From NCBI GenBank assembly GCA_945935525.1, contig CAMERI010000002.1:188482-252481 (forward strand): 64,000 nucleotides of DNA. Direction: 5' to 3'. Positions 3,997 to 25,891 of this stretch are shown in pieces (within the stretch, counting starts at the first letter, position 1; each line of letters starts with the position of its first letter). Source of the DNA: an uncultured bacterium (lineage in GTDB: Bacteria > Bacillota_I > Bacilli_A > RF39 > UBA660). The notes beneath the pieces were generated by a model, which saw nothing but the letters and a program-made list of their open reading frames with translations, was not told the origin of the DNA and did not search any database. The position numbers were made by a program, and so were the translations under genes.

Positions 3997-4023
3997 ACAA
4001 AAAGAATTCCAAAAAGGAATTCT
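3997..4023 (-). terminator. Rho-independent terminator after parC
   Basis: Perfect inverted repeat AGAATTCC-aaaaa-GGAATTCT, followed on the minus strand by a T-run. Confidence 0.5.
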
Positions 4024-6589
4024 ATATTTTAAATTCTTCGAAGAAATCACTCATTGTTAGTTGACTCTTAGTTTCTTTCTTTTCTTTTTTAACTTCAGGA
4101 GTCTTTGTTTCTTCTTTTATTTCTTGTTTTTCTTCTGCCACATCTTTAATTTCTTCGTTATTTAATTTTATTTCTTTTAGTTTAGTAACTACGAATATGT
4201 CTTCTATATTCTTTTTAGTTATTGTGCTTCCAACACTTTGTTTATCCATTATATTTATATCACTTGATTTCATATAACCTATGTCTCCATCAAGTATACC
4301 AAATATTGTTTTTGAGTTTGTGTTGAATCCTTTGAATAAGTTATATGTTTTTGATTTAGGACTCTTTATGATAGATGAACCTTTTTTAGCTCTTGTTGTT
4401 TTTGGTATTTCATCTATTTTAACTCTTTTAGCAGTGTTTCTATCAGTGAACAATGTTACATATTCTTTAGAAGTGCTTACTACGAATGCACTAATTACTT
4501 CGTCTTTGCCACTTAAGTTAATAGATTTGACTCCACTTGTTCTAAGGCCTACTACTGGTATTTCACTAGTGTTATATTTTAATGCGTTGCCTTCTTTAGT
4601 TATAACAAGTGTTTCTTCACCATTGTTTTTATTTATAGATATTAACTCATCATTATCTTTTAGTTTGAACATTGTGATAGGTTTTGTGTATCTTGATACT
4701 TCAAAGTCTTTAAGTACCATTCTTTTTACCATACCAAGTTTAGTGAATGCTGTAATAATTGTATCATCGAATTTAGCTACTCCGATAGATTTAACTACCT
4801 TTTCTCCATCACTAACTTTAATATAATTTGATATATGAGTACCTATATCTTTATATTTTGCTTCTTGTATTTCTCTTACTGGTAAGAATAAATAATTACC
4901 TAAGTTTGTGAATAATAATACAGTATCTATATTATTAATCTTATAGAAGCCTTCAATATAATCATTTTCTCTTACTCCTGGATATTCATTGTTAGTCATA
5001 TTATATGATTTTAATGATACTTTCTTAACATATCCATTATTAGAGATACATACTATAAAGTCTTCTTTACTAATCATATCTAGTGTATCTATTTTGATTT
5101 CACTTACTTCATCTTTAATAGTTGTACGTCTTGGATCAGCAAATTCTTTCTTAATACTTCTTAGTTTATCTTTGATAACGCCCATTAATTTTTCTTCACT
5201 AGCAAGTATTTCTCTAAAGTAAGCTATTTCTTTTGTAAGAGCATCAAATTCATTTTTTAGTTCTGTTACATCAGTGTTAGTTAATTTATATAGTTGCATC
5301 ATTACGATAGCTTCTGCTTGTGCTTTAGTGAATTCATATTCATGCATTAAGTTTTCTATAGCATCACTTTTGTTTTTACTTTTACGAATAGTTTTAATTA
5401 CTTCATCTAGTATATCTAGTGCTTTTATGAAGCCTTCGATAATATGTATTTTCTTTAAATCTACATCTAGATCAAATTTAGTTCTTTTAGTTACTACTTC
5501 TTTATTGTGAACTATGAATGCATCTAACATTTCTAGGATACCTAGTGTTTTTGGTGTTCTATTAACGATAGCAACCATATTAAATGCATAGTTTGTTTGT
5601 AAGTCAGTATTTTTAAGTAAGTAGTTTATTATTAAATCTTTGTTAGCATCTTTCTTTAAATCTATTACTATTCTAAGTTCATCATTTTTATCAGATTCAT
5701 CACGTACTTCAACGATACCATCTATTTTCTTATCTAGTCTTATTTCTTCAATCTTACGAATTATATTGCACTTTAATGTATCGTATGGTATTTCTGTTAT
5801 TACGATTTGATCTTTACCTTTTACTGATTCGAATGAGTATCTTGCTTTTACTACTACTTTTCCTTTTCCTGTAGTGTATGCTTTTATAAGTGCGTCTTTT
5901 CCTTCGACTATACCTCCGGTTGGGAAGTCTGGACCTTTTACGATATCCATAATAGTATCTAGTCTACAGTTTGGACTATCTATTCTTTTAATAGTAGCAT
6001 CTATTACTTCACCTAAGTTATGTGGTGGAATGTTAGTTGCATATCCTGCGCTTATACCAGTTGAACCATTTACTAAAAGGTTTGGAAAGTATGCAGGAAG
6101 TACTGTTGGTTCATAGCTATAGTCATCGAATGTAAGAGCCATTTCTACTGAATCTTTTTCTATGTCTTCTAAAAGTATATTACTTATTTTAGCTAATCTT
6201 GCCTCAGTATAACGCATTGCGGCTGGTCCATCACCATCTATTGAACCATTGTTTCCTTGCATATCTACAAGTATTACTCTTTGTTTCCATTTTTGACTAA
6301 GTCTTACCATCGCATCGTATACTGATGTATCTCCGTGTGGATGGTAATTACCTATAACGTTACCTACAGTCTTTGCTGATTTTCTGGTTTCTTTGTCATA
6401 AGTATTTTTGTCTTTGTACATTGAATAAAGTATTCTTCTTTGTACTGGTTTTAGTCCATCACGAACATCTGGAAGAGCTCTATCTTGGATTATGTATTTA
6501 GCATATCTACCAAAACGTTCTCCCATTATTTCTTCAAGGGCAAAGTCATTTATCTTTTCTATAATTGTTGTTTCTTTTTCTTTAGCCAT
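4022..6589 (-). CDS. parC: DNA topoisomerase IV subunit A
   Basis: GyrA/ParC N-terminal domain with active-site region; AMVRLSQKWKQRVIL resembles the ParC signature (AMVRLSQDWK) rather than GyrA's AMVRMAQDF; sits directly downstream of the GyrB/ParE-type gene. Confidence 0.8.
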   Translation of the reverse strand: MAKEKETTIIEKINDFALEEIMGERFGRYAKYIIQDRALPDVRDGLKPVQRRILYSMYKDKNTYDKETRKSAKTVGNVIGNYHPHGDTSVYDAMVRLSQKWKQRVILVDMQGNNGSIDGDGPAAMRYTEARLAKISNILLEDIEKDSVEMALTFDDYSYEPTVLPAYFPNLLVNGSTGISAGYATNIPPHNLGEVIDATIKRIDSPNCRLDTIMDIVKGPDFPTGGIVEGKDALIKAYTTGKGKVVVKARYSFESVKGKDQIVITEIPYDTLKCNIIRKIEEIRLDKKIDGIVEVRDESDKNDELRIVIDLKKDANKDLIINYLLKNTDLQTNYAFNMVAIVNRTPKTLGILEMLDAFIVHNKEVVTKRTKFDLDVDLKKIHIIEGFIKALDILDEVIKTIRKSKNKSDAIENLMHEYEFTKAQAEAIVMMQLYKLTNTDVTELKNEFDALTKEIAYFREILASEEKLMGVIKDKLRSIKKEFADPRRTTIKDEVSEIKIDTLDMISKEDFIVCISNNGYVKKVSLKSYNMTNNEYPGVRENDYIEGFYKINNIDTVLLFTNLGNYLFLPVREIQEAKYKDIGTHISNYIKVSDGEKVVKSIGVAKFDDTIITAFTKLGMVKRMVLKDFEVSRYTKPITMFKLKDNDELISINKNNGEETLVITKEGNALKYNTSEIPVVGLRTSGVKSINLSGKDEVISAFVVSTSKEYVTLFTDRNTAKRVKIDEIPKTTRAKKGSSIIKSPKSKTYNLFKGFNTNSKTIFGILDGDIGYMKSSDINIMDKQSVGSTITKKNIEDIFVVTKLKEIKLNNEEIKDVAEEKQEIKEETKTPEVKKEKKETKSQLTMSDFFEEFKI

Positions 6590-22497: not shown

Positions 22498-22998
22498 TTA
22501 AAGAATTACTTCATCAAAAACGTATTTTATACTAAATTCATAGTATGGTTGTTCTATTATGTCTTTACCATTATACGTTATTTTTATATTTAGTTTTTCA
22601 GTTTTACCACCTTCAATAATATTATTTTTATCTAGTGATAAATCTATATTTACGTTTTTTGTATCTATGTTTGTAAATATGTTTTCTATGTACATATTTG
22701 TTATTTTAGCATTTATGTTTCCTATGTTTGTTACGTCTACACTAAATGAGTTTGTCTTTCTAAATTTGTTTAGGTCTGGTACTTTAACTGTTATTGTGTT
22801 ATTATCACTATCTATTTTTACTGTCATATCAGTGTCATAGTCTATTGTTACATTACTAAACTTAATGTCATAATATTTCTTTTTAATATCAGCATTTCCT
22901 CTTACTGTGAAGTTATTTAAAAGATAAAATAGTGAACCTGCGAAAACAAGTAAACTGAATAATAATACAATTAGTGTGTATGTTATTTTTTCTTTCAT
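22498..22998 (-). CDS. N-terminally membrane-anchored protein, unknown function (occupies the divIB/ftsQ position upstream of ftsA)
   Basis: Single TM followed by a beta-rich extracytoplasmic region; no POTRA motif visible. Confidence 0.35.
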   Translation of the reverse strand: MKEKITYTLIVLLFSLLVFAGSLFYLLNNFTVRGNADIKKKYYDIKFSNVTIDYDTDMTVKIDSDNNTITVKVPDLNKFRKTNSFSVDVTNIGNINAKITNMYIENIFTNIDTKNVNIDLSLDKNNIIEGGKTEKLNIKITYNGKDIIEQPYYEFSIKYVFDEVIL

Positions 22999-23036
22999 AG
23001 TACCCTTCCTATTCTATAGATATAATAACATAAATA

Positions 23037-23064
23037 AAGAAAAAAAGCATTAGTTTCCTAATAC
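23037..23064 (-). terminator. hairpin plus T-run (copy A of a repeated terminator-like element)
   Basis: The 20-mer attagtttcctaatactatt is identical to the one at 24798-24817; stem ATTAG/CTAAT; an A-run lies on the plus side. Confidence 0.4.
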
Positions 23065-23069
23065 TATTG

Positions 23070-23211
23070 TTATTCTGTTATAAAATTAATGATTAAATCA
23101 ATTAATATTTCTTTTTATTTTAGATTAGACTTTGCTAGTAATGTATTATTTTCTATTACTCTCTTTTCGAACTGTCACAAAATTTGCGACCGTTGATAGT
23201 GGTTGTTGCAT
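23070..23211 (-). pseudogene. decayed, internally deleted copy of the adjacent Fic/RhuM-family gene
   Basis: RC encodes MQQPLSTVANFVTVRKESNRK*, which matches residues around 55-75 of the full gene (VAKFATVQKEGNRK). A second frame encodes LLAKSNLK*KEILIDLIINFITE*, which matches its C-terminus (LLVAQSNPKEKEIIIDLIINFITK). Confidence 0.55.
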
Positions 23212-23272
23212 TTTTTGCAACTACCACTTATCAATAATTTTGTCTTATCGGTGTGTACATTAATATTTATGA

Positions 23273-23698
23273 TTATTCGTAGATTATTCCTTCTTTATAT
23301 TTTTCAATGCATTTTTTACTTGGATTATATAAATTGGTTGGTAAATCATTTAAATCGAACCATTTCCATTCTAATATTGTTTCTGGTTCCATTGCTTTTG
23401 CTTCTCCAGTGTATTCTCTTACTATAAACCCAACAGTAACATAGTGTGCAGTATTTGTCATGTCGTCTGATATACATAATAAATCTAGTTTTGTTGCTTT
23501 TAAGCTTGTTTCTTCTTCTAATTCTCTTTTTGCTGCATCAACCAATTTTTCCATGAATTCTACTTTTCCACCAGGCATAGTCCAAGTTCCTTGACCTTGT
23601 AGTTCACTACTTGCCTTTTCTTTGTTTGGATTTCTTAATCCTAATAATATCTTCCCTTCTTTTATTATCATTACTCCCACACCTAAACCTGGTTTCAT
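23273..23698 (-). CDS. NUDIX hydrolase
   Basis: Nudix box GGKVEFMEKLVDAAKRELEEETSL. Confidence 0.8.
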   Translation of the reverse strand: MKPGLGVGVMIIKEGKILLGLRNPNKEKASSELQGQGTWTMPGGKVEFMEKLVDAAKRELEEETSLKATKLDLLCISDDMTNTAHYVTVGFIVREYTGEAKAMEPETILEWKWFDLNDLPTNLYNPSKKCIEKYKEGIIYE

Positions 23699-23784
23699 TT
23701 ATCTTCACCTCTACGCTGATTATATCATAGTTTAAGTCATGTGTACTAATATAGTTTAAAATTGGACACACATATTCTTATATT

Positions 23785-24729
23785 TTATTTTGTTATGAAG
23801 TTAATAATTAAATCAATTATTATTTCTTTTTCTTTTGGATTAGACTGTGCTACTAAAAGTGTTATAGCAGCTAATGTGTTATTATCAATTATTTGATTAT
23901 TATCTTTATTCAATATACCATAAAAATTTAAAAAATATATAAATAATGCTGCAGCAATTCTTTTATTTCCATCTATATAAATATGATTTTTAACTATAAG
24001 ATATAGAAAATTTGATGCCTTTTCTTCTACACTTTTATATACTTCTTCTCCGTCAAAAGTTTGATACAAATCATTTATAATTGATTCTAAACCTTTATTC
24101 CTTTCTATCGCAAATAAATTACTTTCGATATTAAATTTTAGTTTATTAATAATATTTACACATTCTTCATATTTAATTTGTTCTTTACTATTACTTCCTT
24201 TAGGTTTTGATAATGTTTTATGGTCATAATCATCTAAAAGATTAAGTGCTTTTGAATAGTTACCTATAACTTTTAATATTTCCCCTGCATCACCATTATT
24301 TAGTTTTCCATCTATTCTATTAGCAATATCAATTAATTTAACTGTTTTTTCTAAATATTCTAATCTTTTTTGATTTACCGCATAACCTTTAATCATATAG
24401 TCTTTCAGTATTTTATTTGCCCATTTTCTAAATGTCACTCCTTGAGGTGATTTTACCCTGTATCCAATACTTATAATCATATCGAGATTGTAATATTCAA
24501 TACTACGAATTATCTTTCTATTTCCCTCTTTTTGAACTGTTGCAAATTTTGCAACAACTGAACTATCTAGTTCTTCTTTTATTGAATTTTTTATATGTCT
24601 TGAAATAACAGATTTATCTCTATCAAATAATTTGGCCATTTGTTCTAAAGATAGCCATACTGTTTCATCCTTCATATTAACTTCTAATTTTACCTTTTGA
24701 TTCTCAAATAATACTATTTCATTTTTCAT
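23785..24729 (-). CDS. Fic/DOC-family protein with RhuM-like N-terminal region
   Basis: C-terminal Fic motif HIYIDGNKRIAAA (HxFx(D/E)GNGR-like); the N-terminus resembles RhuM virulence-family proteins. Confidence 0.7.
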   Translation of the reverse strand: MKNEIVLFENQKVKLEVNMKDETVWLSLEQMAKLFDRDKSVISRHIKNSIKEELDSSVVAKFATVQKEGNRKIIRSIEYYNLDMIISIGYRVKSPQGVTFRKWANKILKDYMIKGYAVNQKRLEYLEKTVKLIDIANRIDGKLNNGDAGEILKVIGNYSKALNLLDDYDHKTLSKPKGSNSKEQIKYEECVNIINKLKFNIESNLFAIERNKGLESIINDLYQTFDGEEVYKSVEEKASNFLYLIVKNHIYIDGNKRIAAALFIYFLNFYGILNKDNNQIIDNNTLAAITLLVAQSNPKEKEIIIDLIINFITK

Positions 24730-24787
24730 TGTTCTATCCTCCTAATATTATAGTTAGACAAAACTTTGTAAAACACTTCAAATTGTA

Positions 24788-24813
24788 TTAAAAAAGTATT
24801 AGTTTCCTAATAC
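24788..24813 (-). terminator. Rho-independent terminator after the 24813-25793 gene (copy B of the repeated element)
   Basis: GTATTAG-tttc-CTAATAC with a T-run on the minus strand; overlaps the TAG stop. Confidence 0.45.
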
Positions 24814-25793
24814 TATTTAGTTAGAGATACTACTGATGTTGATGAAGCTACTTTTAGAAGTTCTTCGTTTGTTAGGTTTTCACCTATGATGTAGTAATCT
24901 TTTCCATTCATATTCCAGTTTAGAGATGAACCTGTTAGATTACCTAATACATTTTCATAGAATACTAGTTCTCCTGATACACTTGTTACTTCGAAATCTT
25001 TTGGAGCTTTTGCTGCCTCTTCTATTAAGATAAATGATTTGTCACCGGTGAATGTTAATATTACTCTTTCTGAATCTTTTGATTTAACAGTTTCTTCACT
25101 TTTGAATTTTGTACCAGTTGGCAAGTACATTGGATAAACTATTTCATCAATTTTACTTACATCTTTGCAGCATTCTTCACCCGCATTACTTTCTACATCG
25201 AAATAATCTTCTTTGAAGTCAGGTTTAAAATCTATTTTAGATATTTTAAATGTTATATTAGCAACTCCGTCTTTATTAAATACATTTACTTCTTCTGGAT
25301 TCATATCTTTGTTAAATACTATTTTTTGACTTATCAGTGAACTATTATTAGGATAATTTACTGACGAAGATAAGATATATTTTTCTTCACTTTCTTCTAA
25401 AATTACATTTGAATCATTTTCTAAATCTTTTAAAAGCGATGATAATATATATGCTTGACTACTATTGTATGGCCATTCACTTTGAAATTTAAAGCTTTTA
25501 TTTAGTGATGGTGTTACGACATAAACTCCATCTTTGTTCTTTAATATTATTTGTTCATGATTATTATCTTTATTAGTTAGTGATGCTTTATAATAGTCTC
25601 CCTCCATATAATCTACTTTAACATCATAATGATATAGTTCTTCATTACTAACAATATCCATTTGACCAGTTAATGTATATTTTGAATTGTCATTTAAAAG
25701 TTTTTTATATTCGTTTATTGCTTTTTTAGAATCCATTTTATTACAACCTACTAAAAGAAAACATGATACTAGTAATAATATTACTTTTTTTAT
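24813..25793 (-). CDS. lipoprotein; probable non-canonical ATA/ATT start (the ORF track begins at the internal Met at 25736)
   Basis: The in-frame upstream extension encodes a textbook lipoprotein signal peptide IKKVILLLVSCFLLVGC-NK with no ATG/GTG/TTG; an AAGGGGGA Shine-Dalgarno sits 7 nt before ATA at 25793. Confidence 0.45.
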   Translation of the reverse strand: MKKVILLLVSCFLLVGCNKMDSKKAINEYKKLLNDNSKYTLTGQMDIVSNEELYHYDVKVDYMEGDYYKASLTNKDNNHEQIILKNKDGVYVVTPSLNKSFKFQSEWPYNSSQAYILSSLLKDLENDSNVILEESEEKYILSSSVNYPNNSSLISQKIVFNKDMNPEEVNVFNKDGVANITFKISKIDFKPDFKEDYFDVESNAGEECCKDVSKIDEIVYPMYLPTGTKFKSEETVKSKDSERVILTFTGDKSFILIEEAAKAPKDFEVTSVSGELVFYENVLGNLTGSSLNWNMNGKDYYIIGENLTNEELLKVASSTSVVSLTK

Positions 25794-25891
25794 ATTAATT
25801 CCCCCTTCACACTAAATTATATTTTAGTTTGTATTTTATATGAATAGAAAATCTAAAATGAGTGAATAATAATAGTGTGTAAGGAGGAAAG

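Follow-up and report, generated by a model that had tools for sequence, protein, structure and literature searches.

A RhuM-Fic gene, a NUDIX gene and the probable scar of two older rhuM genes beside the ftsA-ftsZ cluster of an uncultured gut bacterium, and a palindrome at a fixed codon of the rhuM family

RhuM-like genes are typical of restriction-modification (R-M) and defense islands, and their products have been proposed to act as toxins (PMC3710099, PMC9881135). In BifA of Streptococcus equi subsp. zooepidemicus an N-terminal RhuM domain is joined to a C-terminal Fic domain, and the activity of the protein has been shown through phosphorylation of its target, a reaction for which the Fic histidine is needed (PMC6529018). 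A further point of comparison is Doc of phage P1, the toxin of the Phd/Doc type II toxin-antitoxin system, whose catalytic loop follows the pattern HxFx[D/N][A/G]NKR. To our knowledge, BifA is the sole RhuM-Fic protein studied so far. The subject of this work is a gene of the same architecture, here called fic, together with its surroundings in a 64,000-nucleotide (nt) stretch of DNA from an uncultured bacterium of the RF39/UBA660 lineage (contig CAMERI010000002.1 of assembly GCA_945935525.1, positions 188,482 to 252,481); the whole of this stretch is referred to as the window.

The window Fic protein is likened to BifA by its domain architecture, and the location of BifA on a horizontally acquired island (PMC6529018) is listed as a second common trait; whereas BifA has been described as a virulence factor that acts on moesin of the host, the protein studied here comes from a gut commensal and has no secretion context. 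With Doc it shares the catalytic loop, which reads HIYIDGNKR, and a weak match to the DOC_P1 family, but it differs in its length (314 residues), in its large N-terminal RhuM/helix-turn-helix (HTH) extension, and in the absence of a Phd-like antitoxin gene. It also resembles the PADLOC defense candidates PDC-S23 and PDC-S05, which it matches over its full length and over its N-terminal part, respectively, and its gene lies in a variable accessory spot; unlike the rhuM-like genes of R-M islands, it stands outside any such island, and PDC-S23 and PDC-S05 are themselves candidates. We consider it probable that fic belongs to an accessory block that was inserted after the terminator of a lipoprotein gene, and that consists of fic with its own promoter, a NUDIX gene, and a neutral scar of two older rhuM genes. 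The region comprises the following features, in minus-strand order; p166 is followed by ftsA and ftsZ.

24813-25736, minus strand: LolA/GerS-like lipoprotein gene, the conserved flank (weak Pfam LolA and NCBIfam GerS matches)
24790-24817, minus strand: hairpin A1, left copy of a 28-bp direct repeat, AATAGTATTAGGAAACTAATACTTTTTT, overlapping the lipoprotein TAG stop (24813-24815)
24744-24772, minus strand: promoter-like site of fic (TTTACA, 16 nt, TAATAT), followed by the ribosome-binding site AGGAGG
23785-24729, minus strand: fic, intact, RhuM (N-terminal) and Fic/Doc (C-terminal), 314 residues (Pfam, PADLOC)
24534-24560, minus strand: rhuM-family palindrome inside fic, core GTTGCAAAATTTGCAAC, codons S-V-V-A-K-F-A-T-V
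24509-24522, minus strand: short direct repeat, 5' copy in fic, AATAGAAAGATAAT; 3' counterpart near 23878-23890
23719-23727, minus strand: extended -10 element of the NUDIX gene, TGATATAAT, within the 87-nt fic-NUDIX spacer
23273-23698, minus strand: NUDIX hydrolase gene, 141 residues (Pfam NUDIX), with the Nudix box at 23501-23572
23195-23232, minus strand: inverted repeat of 38 nt, putative relic of a second rhuM gene, with the 31-nt core AGTGGTAGTTGCAAAAAATGCAACAACCACT at 23198-23228
23145-23194, minus strand: fic remnant, 5' piece (codons ~57-74), including the palindrome GGTCGCAAATTTTGTGACAG (23172-23191) and the deletion junction (23138-23160)
23070-23149, minus strand: fic remnant, 3' piece (last ~26 codons and TAA stop at 23070-23072)
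23041-23068, minus strand: hairpin A2, right terminator copy, abutting the remnant stop (TAA-C-AATAG...)
22498-22998, minus strand: p166, membrane-anchored protein without a family match, first gene of p166-ftsA-ftsZ; promoter region at 23011-23037

The case for an insertion comes from FtsA-anchored loci of 41 related species-level genomes (labeled as uncultured Bacilli, Mollicutes or 'Clostridium sp. CAG:524/CAG:1000'; loci are designated below by L numbers). The lipoprotein gene adjoins p166 or ftsA in almost all of these species, and where FtsA is at most 83% identical to that of the window, p166 (or directly ftsA) follows the lipoprotein gene after 70-110 nt, with fic and NUDIX absent; about 25 species have neither gene at this site. 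At empty sites (L018, L019, L044, L043, L028 and L021) a single hairpin, AGTATTAGGAAACTAATRCT, and a T-run stand between the lipoprotein stop and the p166 promoter, and an 8-bp stem, a GAAA loop and six to nine T's are found at the lipoprotein stop of at least six species. In the window this hairpin occurs twice, as a 28-nt repeat with 27 of 28 positions identical and a spacing of 1749. A first-pass annotation of the window, made from the sequence alone, had pointed to an exact 20-mer at 23049-23068 and 24798-24817, which proves to be part of this longer repeat; its two hairpin copies are real, but instead of a separate repeat element they appear to be a duplicated native terminator of the lipoprotein gene. 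No further copy exists in the window with up to three mismatches allowed (0.04 expected), and a dispersed repeat or miniature inverted-repeat transposable element is ruled out by the presence of just two copies there and of single, terminator-positioned copies at empty sites. A terminator scan of the window did not call the hairpin because its stem has only two G-C pairs, and A1 folds with a z-score of -3.6. Compared with the empty sites, A1 retains the junction on the lipoprotein side and A2 that on the side of the p166 promoter, whose region is conserved with empty-site species. Since relatives have a single hairpin at their empty sites, the 1.75-kb unit of fic promoter, fic, NUDIX and scar reads as an insertion bracketed by the duplicated native terminator. 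The sequence upstream of A2, TAACAATAG, resembles the lipoprotein ...TAACAAAATAG, and the duplication may therefore reach ~35 bp (counting the preceding TAACAA..TAG) rather than 28 bp.

The scar is composite. A blastn comparison of 23000-23290 with 23700-24830 aligns 23065-23149 with 23781-23865, the 3' end of fic with its stop (73/86, 85%, E 4e-20), and 23145-23190 with 24509-24555, fic codons ~58-74 (39/47, 83%, E 2e-8); with the hairpin, this makes three co-linear matches. The proposal that two pieces of fic recur here in their original order thus survives a proper nucleotide alignment, and the stretch shared with the fic 3' end, in an independent repeat search, amounts to 72 nt at 88% identity. 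At the protein level, where 60-70% identity had been estimated, tblastn gives 60% (fic residues 279-313 against 23162-23076, E 4e-5). A resemblance of the 3' piece to the 3' end of the lipoprotein gene (67-71% over ~120 nt, against 85% for fic) is an extension artefact of the shared hairpin in AT-rich DNA. In the remnant, codons ~57-74 are fused to the last ~26 codons at the junction AGTAATAGAAAATAATACATTAC. Intact alleles have GGAAATAGAAAGATAAT on the 5' side and the L011 allele has an intact GTAATAGAAAATAATACATTAG on the 3' side, the repeat being present at both sides, which argues for a deletion between ~13-bp direct repeats (AATAGAAA[G]ATAAT). The main fic copy of L009 has the same AATAGAAAATAATACATTAG junction, with codons 1-72 joined to 281-314 and a frameshift leading to a stop after ...GNRK; either recurrent deletion at the repeat or copying between the two positions would produce a junction common to L009 and the window. 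Six strains share the scar region at 96% identity. In L008, L009 and L011 just ~47 nt of the fic 3' end are kept, joined to A2 via ...GAATAA-CAATAG, so the fusion of fic to A2 would be older than the split of these species.

The remnant was originally taken to derive from fic throughout; its fic-derived part stands, but the scar extends to 23232, and this outer part appears to come from a second, different rhuM gene. In strain L002, the core of the inverted repeat is identical at 30 of 31 positions to the coding palindrome of L196-type rhuM genes (EEKVVVAKNAITTEH), which are common in human-gut viral contigs. The pattern AGTGGTANNTGCA-N3-8-TGCANNWACCACT, searched in metagenome contigs, is present in at least 120 of them, with GC contents from 25% to 63% and from many biomes, and about two-thirds of the matches listed lie inside rhuM-like open reading frames (ORFs) at residue ~60-90, where they encode VVCA(K/N)FAHTT. 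This distribution and the identity between the L002 and L196 versions suggest that the scar holds the palindrome region of a second rhuM gene, of which the inverted repeat would be a relic of ~35-45 nt. The palindrome region of the old fic copy comes 14 nt after it. The inverted repeat makes the strongest hairpin of the scar (23198-23229); as DNA it folds at -14.1 kcal/mol (z -8), and it is single-copy in the window. As in known pseudogene scars and slipped-strand deletions, an internal deletion at a ~13-bp repeat is accompanied by neutral divergence and by progressive loss in sister lineages; unlike usual pseudogene scars, that of the window is composed of two rhuM genes, the surviving part of each being centred on the family palindrome.

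The ~165-bp non-coding scar looks like a neutral relic, because it diverges at least at the synonymous rate and is mostly deleted in sister species. Between the window and L002, identity is 94.1% in the scar versus 97.9% at NUDIX third positions, and between the window and L011 the values are 74% and 87%. Seven of the 12 scar differences between the window and L002 (alignment read by eye) fall in the two palindromes, and include a complementary T>C / A>G pair, a pattern that fits palindromes as mutational hotspots with concerted changes even if they are neutral. Among the Rfam 15 families, a search of 22900-24900 gave a single spurious, sub-threshold match, and a known non-coding RNA or riboswitch in the scar is ruled out.

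The site itself is a hotspot of cargo turnover, as had been suspected for the position upstream of ftsA-ftsZ: it is empty in distant species, and carries either fic-NUDIX or a different gene in the nearest ones. Of the species nearest to that of the window (FtsA 96-98% identical), two carry fic-NUDIX (L008 and L011) and one, L009, an intact NUDIX gene beside its frameshifted, internally deleted fic; in their place, L010 and L014 encode a protein of ~400 residues with a prepilin signal and a Hint domain, which is probably also the cargo of L012, L013 and L015. In the prepilin/Hint loci the right-hand hairpin is the ancestral one, and the left-hand one differs. Their genes lie at 2962-4176 in L010 and at 8196-9389 in L014, and encode an N-terminal prepilin-type signal, KGFTLVELLAVIAIL, and a C-terminal Hint signature (...LVHNA). 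The allele class of p166 follows the type of cargo, with p166 identity of 72-76% in the prepilin/Hint group versus 88-100% in the fic group, at FtsA identity of 96-98% and FtsZ identity above 99%; this covariation at constant FtsA suggests that whole alleles of the region are swapped via the conserved flanks. In all, the locus is an ordinary small accessory hotspot with pseudogene scars beside division genes. Identical proteins occur in many human-gut metagenome assemblies (including scaffolds of 1.29-1.38 Mb), always in the same gene order, and the identical Fic protein was found at the same locus on 22 read contigs.

Several observations concern the same neighborhood. The lipoprotein gene is preceded on the minus strand by the genes for ribosomal proteins L11 and L1, then by a small DUF378 gene on the other strand; its real start probably lies upstream of the listed ATG at 25736, and its frame is open upstream (25737-25800) through KKVILLLVSCFLLVGC, a lipoprotein signal with a lipobox (...LLVGC). 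A second variable spot lies ~1.5 kb away, where in L017, L021, L022, L028, L030, L041 and L042 the L1 gene is separated from the DUF378 gene by a further 0.8-1.4 kb that has no counterpart in the window. The p166 gene is absent from some related species (such as L023, L029, L032, L034 and L037). The N-terminal third of fic (24400-24660, codons ~25-110) is hypervariable among conspecific strains (compared with L003, L004 and L011); the gene is mosaic, and the whole Fic protein is 85% identical between conspecific strains while the flanking lipoprotein is 100% identical. The allele of L003 and L004 has another type of palindrome, with CGG arms.

The gene calls of the first-pass annotation are borne out by Pfam at both fic and NUDIX. 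Fic matches Virulence_RhuM (PF13310) with 91 bits against a cutoff of 33.7 over residues 57-125, and Fic (PF02661) with 38.8 bits against a cutoff of 24 over residues 210-267; over its N-terminus it shares 50-65% identity with 13 diverse RhuM proteins. The match to PDC-S23 covers residues 1-313 and profile positions 1-324 of 327 (E 1.7e-119), and the N-terminal part matches many PDC-S05 models; no mention of PDC-S23 was found in the searched literature. DOC_P1 (TIGR01550) scores 28.1 bits, under its cutoff of 38.65. The catalytic motif, encoded at 23959-23985, has Tyr in place of the Phe of HxFx(D/E)GN(G/K)R. Its NKR loop, with Lys for the second Gly, is Doc-like, and loops of this kind suggest chemistry of the kinase and not of the AMPylase type; phosphorylation, rather than AMPylation, is accordingly what this loop predicts for Fic. 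There is no small ORF upstream that could encode a Phd-type antitoxin, fic being preceded by a putative terminator and its own promoter-like site, and the 64-kb window has no second fic copy. Fic is likely to work without a partner, as a Doc-like toxin that modifies proteins or as a candidate defense effector, and to be steered or regulated by its N-terminal HTH. No related solved structure is detectable by sequence, and an AlphaFold2 model from a shallow alignment has a mean confidence score (pLDDT) of 43.7, too poor for a fold search; its N-terminal pattern of strands, helices at 28-35 and 39-52, and a beta-hairpin at 59-81 is used as a hint only.

The NUDIX protein gives 68 bits with Pfam NUDIX (PF00293), its closest solved relatives are MutT/NUDT1-like, and its Nudix box, GGKVEFMEKLVDAAKRELEEETSL, is near-canonical with respect to GX5EX7REUXEEXGU, with Ser at the final Gly position. 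In other contexts, the homology to NUDIX genes covers the gene and 15-30 nt upstream only. Homologues of NUDIX with 87-88% identity adjoin a 170-residue gene and serine recombinases and have no Fic neighbor, and homologues of Fic with 77-83% identity adjoin flavodoxin or IS605 genes and have no NUDIX neighbor. In L268 and L270-L272 (~4001-6118), NUDIX homologues overlap the start of the conserved gene of ~170 residues, near serine recombinase and DDE-transposase-associated genes, a setting in which NUDIX itself looks like mobile cargo. In L053 (6073-7565), IS200/IS605-type TnpA (Y1) and TnpB genes lie directly downstream of a 78%-identical fic homologue, and in the sibling contigs L054-L056 only a TnpB-type gene is called there.

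A plausible history can be told in a few steps. A unit of promoter, fic and terminator would have become established after the lipoprotein terminator, and would have been duplicated in tandem by unequal crossing-over between terminator copies, an arrangement of which the order fic-terminator-promoter-fic survives in L057. The stretch from the stop of the first fic to the palindrome of the second would then have been replaced by NUDIX and a fragment of another rhuM gene, after which the second, downstream fic would have lost its middle through the direct-repeat deletion, and decayed. The palindromes of the scar would be relics of the fixed-codon rhuM palindrome, which probably also serves as a point of breakage in events of this kind. 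L057 belongs to another genome, and its locus is another one as well (cupin ... fic-flavodoxin). Upstream of its intact fic come, in this order, a perfect canonical rhuM palindrome with ~30 nt of decayed rhuM coding sequence, a stretch of fic (codons ~48-75), ATAATAGAATTAA, one half of hairpin A, and the fic promoter known from the window; a region of ~88 nt upstream of fic is shared with the window at 87.5% identity, and the order remnant-hairpin A-promoter-fic is a circular permutation of A1-promoter-fic-NUDIX-remnant-A2. The 41-genome comparison and the identical deletion junction of L009 agree with the original suggestion that a toxin-like Fic locus had undergone duplication, deletion and rearrangement. 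A number of points weigh against this reconstruction. Neither in the block nor next to it do the ORFs and Pfam annotations of any strain's locus include an integrase, transposase or other recombinase; a single fic standing between two terminators, the expected intermediate, was not met, and an empty site was not found within the window's own species. The junction common to L009 and the window could reflect shared descent or gene conversion instead of recurrence, local duplication of the fic palindrome with template switching could in principle have given rise to the inverted repeat, and the neutrality of the scar is judged on few sites (~200 nt).

Other explanations have to be set against this one. 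We regard it as unlikely that the block represents, or once represented, a mobile cassette with site-specific integration, with the hairpins as its left and right attachment sites (attL and attR) and an excised circle able to reinsert elsewhere. The block does have direct repeats of 28-35 bp on its two sides and adjoins a gene's 3' end, as in integrase-mediated insertions, and the 28-bp repeat is single at empty sites, as expected of an attachment site; L057 shows the circularly permuted order that a circle or tandem array would give, and sister species hold different cargo at the same site. However, the lack of a recombinase extends to every locus compared, the cargo of L010 and L014 has a left-hand hairpin of another sequence, and homologous recombination through the conserved flanks accounts equally well for the hotspot, as does unequal crossing-over between terminator copies for the permutation. 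Somewhat less credence is given to the scar as a functional cis-regulatory module, whose two rhuM-type palindromes would serve as operator or decoy for the RhuM HTH, or as a 3'-end stabilizer or terminator of the NUDIX RNA. Its structure speaks for such a role: the scar folds better than shuffled sequences (z -4.7 as RNA), to which the z of -8 for the inverted repeat as DNA may be added, and its palindromes are 31 nt apart, centre to centre. Similar tandem rhuM-type palindromes, upstream of or beside rhuM genes, have been met at unrelated loci (L057, L175, L127/L167), and in L228 a rhuM-type palindrome with a T-run is the apparent terminator of a rhuM gene. The scar nonetheless changes at least as fast as synonymous sites, sister species with fic and NUDIX have lost both palindromes, mismatches have accumulated in the inverted repeat of strains L003 and L004, and the scar stands downstream of fic, with a putative terminator between it and p166.

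Still less probable is a two-gene toxin-antitoxin or defense system in which one of Fic and NUDIX counteracts the other. The two are direct neighbors on one strand with 87 nt between them, and both have been kept in the window species, L008 and L011; moreover, NUDIX has a weak match to the PADLOC candidate PDC-S07 (E 1e-11); against this, each gene has its own promoter-like site, PDC-S23 is listed in PADLOC under a single-gene ('S') candidate name, and the intact NUDIX gene of L009 stands next to a frameshifted, internally deleted fic. This last case and the separate contexts of the homologues rule out Fic-NUDIX as a conserved pair, and the suggestion of NUDIX as an antitoxin or immunity partner of Fic is not upheld, close homologues of each occurring without the other; for the same reason, the two are best seen as a chance juxtaposition of independently mobile accessory genes. 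Chance similarity in AT-rich DNA, finally, can be given next to no weight as an origin of the fic matches: the genome is indeed very AT-rich and yields many weak blastn matches at 60-70% identity, but the two alignments of the remnant have very low E values and are co-linear, five other strains conserve the remnant at 96%, and L009 carries a homologous deletion derivative. The preferred reading thus remains an accessory block between terminator copies with a decayed, doubly derived scar.

The palindrome within fic is of wider interest. In rhuM genes retrieved independently of it (viral-contig genes fetched by the peptides GYRVKS and DRTVISKH, outside the palindrome, with 13 RhuM N-termini aligned), a palindrome with arms of 9-16 bp and an AT-rich centre lies at the same centre in 30 of 30 distinct sites, namely the third base of the K/N/E codon in A-K-F-A at residue ~60-70 (window 24534-24560; loci L058-L266). 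It is found where expected in eight of eight rhuM genes on plasmids (Legionella, Pseudomonas, Neotabrizicola, Proteus, Roseomonas, Aeromonas, Monoglobus and Vibrio, which span Alpha- and Gammaproteobacteria and Firmicutes), and one apparent exception, the L003 allele, has its palindrome two codons away. On average, 12.3 of 15 positions form Watson-Crick pairs over 41 distinct sites (34 from genes drawn blind to the palindrome, 7 from genes of the fic type in the window's group), compared with 3.9 +/- 1.8 at other centres of the same coding regions and with 9.2 +/- 1.6 when the same peptides are resampled with synonymous codons. An alignment of 25 sequences pairs in 91% of cells (26-44% with the partners slid), has double-sided changes in 14 of 14 pairs, and has a covariation score of 0.727, against 0.10-0.21 with slid partners, a value attained in none of 500 shuffles. 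The arms differ wholly between subfamilies (GTTGTTGCA/TGCAACAAC, GTTGTTCGG/CCGAACAAC, GTTGTTTCC/GGAAACAAC, GTTAGTAAGG/CCTTACTAAC, CTATCAAG/CTTGATAG and CTACCGAG/CTCGGTAG), and the encoded tetrapeptides shift with them (AKFA, RKFR, SKME, KESL, KSYL, KKYL, EDNS, SVLE), which argues that the constraint acts on the nucleic acid and not on the peptide. The exact 31-mer is absent from E. coli genomes and rare in plasmid and phage collections; the sequence of the palindrome is not universal in these comparisons, and its structure alone appears to be so.

At about even confidence, every rhuM-family gene would carry a selected cis-acting DNA palindrome that is both a self-operator or docking site of the RhuM HTH and a hotspot of recombination or breakage. 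In this preferred reading the structure, rather than the sequence, would be kept in the strand after the HTH, even at the cost of paired amino-acid changes, and would act as an autoregulatory or DNA-tethering device for the toxin domain. One alternative is a self-perpetuating quasi-palindrome, maintained by template-switch correction without any function, and another is an mRNA hairpin; non-Watson-Crick cells are rare and G.T shows no clear excess over A.C (12 vs 7), which argues for a symmetric constraint at the DNA level over an RNA hairpin. A programmed -1 frameshift was set aside, the upstream GAAAAAG not being conserved across the family, as was an intragenic terminator, there being no U-run after the palindrome. 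The palindrome resembles quasi-palindrome template-switch hotspots, in-frame palindromic elements (such as those of Rickettsia) and recombinase core sites (13-bp inverted arms, short spacer) in being DNA-level and nearly strictly Watson-Crick, in its AT-rich centre, in concerted arm changes, and in gene fragments that often break next to it. It differs in that it is translated and, in different phyla, sits at the same codon of a single protein family, and it is unlike a recombinase site in that the sequence of its arms is not conserved. A description of a RhuM palindrome or hairpin was found neither in Rfam nor in the searched literature, and we know of no earlier account of one.

An association between protein and DNA bears on the self-operator. 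In 123 distinct RhuM N-termini, the residue that comes just ahead of the invariant His in the predicted recognition helix (...TVIS-x-HIKNIF) was compared with the inner triplet of the arms, and the partition, for which the statistics ignore kinship, is perfect:

GCA inner triplet: K or R before His, 101
CGG inner triplet: E before His, 8
TCC inner triplet: K before His, 6
AAG inner triplet: L, M or Q before His, 5
GAG inner triplet: L before His, 2

The combination of E with CGG appears in subfamilies with three different types of downstream sequence, and the alternative fic allele L003, from the window species itself, has it as well. This match would fit a self-operator, in which the predicted HTH (residues ~39-52) reads the palindrome directly, and it would equally fit a contact within the protein between the HTH residue and those encoded by the arms.

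With regard to breakage, in several metagenome matches the homology to rhuM ends, on one side, no more than ~25 nt from the palindrome, a count that is semi-quantitative, with ~10 matches of antisense-only pattern mis-scored. At a type I R-M locus (L175, 170-4254) three rhuM genes occur (351 residues, an intact 289, and a truncated 88), of which the last stops just past its palindrome and is followed by a second palindrome and the intact rhuM. Several PDC-S05 models of 82-87 residues match only Fic residues 1-73 to 1-82, from which we infer that short N-terminal ORFs ending near the palindrome are common. Together, these findings suggest that the rhuM palindrome is a preferred breakpoint. Palindromes of this type are also seen outside genes: three different ones stand in tandem in an intergenic region beside a gene for a 421-residue ATPase-like protein in L127 (2796-2925) and in L167, which has the same sequence, with no rhuM gene nearby, and in L228 (2495-2535; also L219, L229 and L230) the palindrome AAAGCAATGTGCAAAATTTGCACATTGCTTT and its T-run come right after the rhuM stop.

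The locus records gene turnover next to the division cluster of an uncultured gut bacterium with a reduced genome, and little more. RhuM is a large and functionally uncharacterized family, and the palindrome could be of wider interest than the locus: it is a rare instance of a nucleic-acid structure that can be seen to dictate which amino acids a stretch of protein contains. If the proposed role is true, the palindrome would account for the many truncated rhuM fragments in genomes, and would offer a handle on the regulation of RhuM or on its DNA target.

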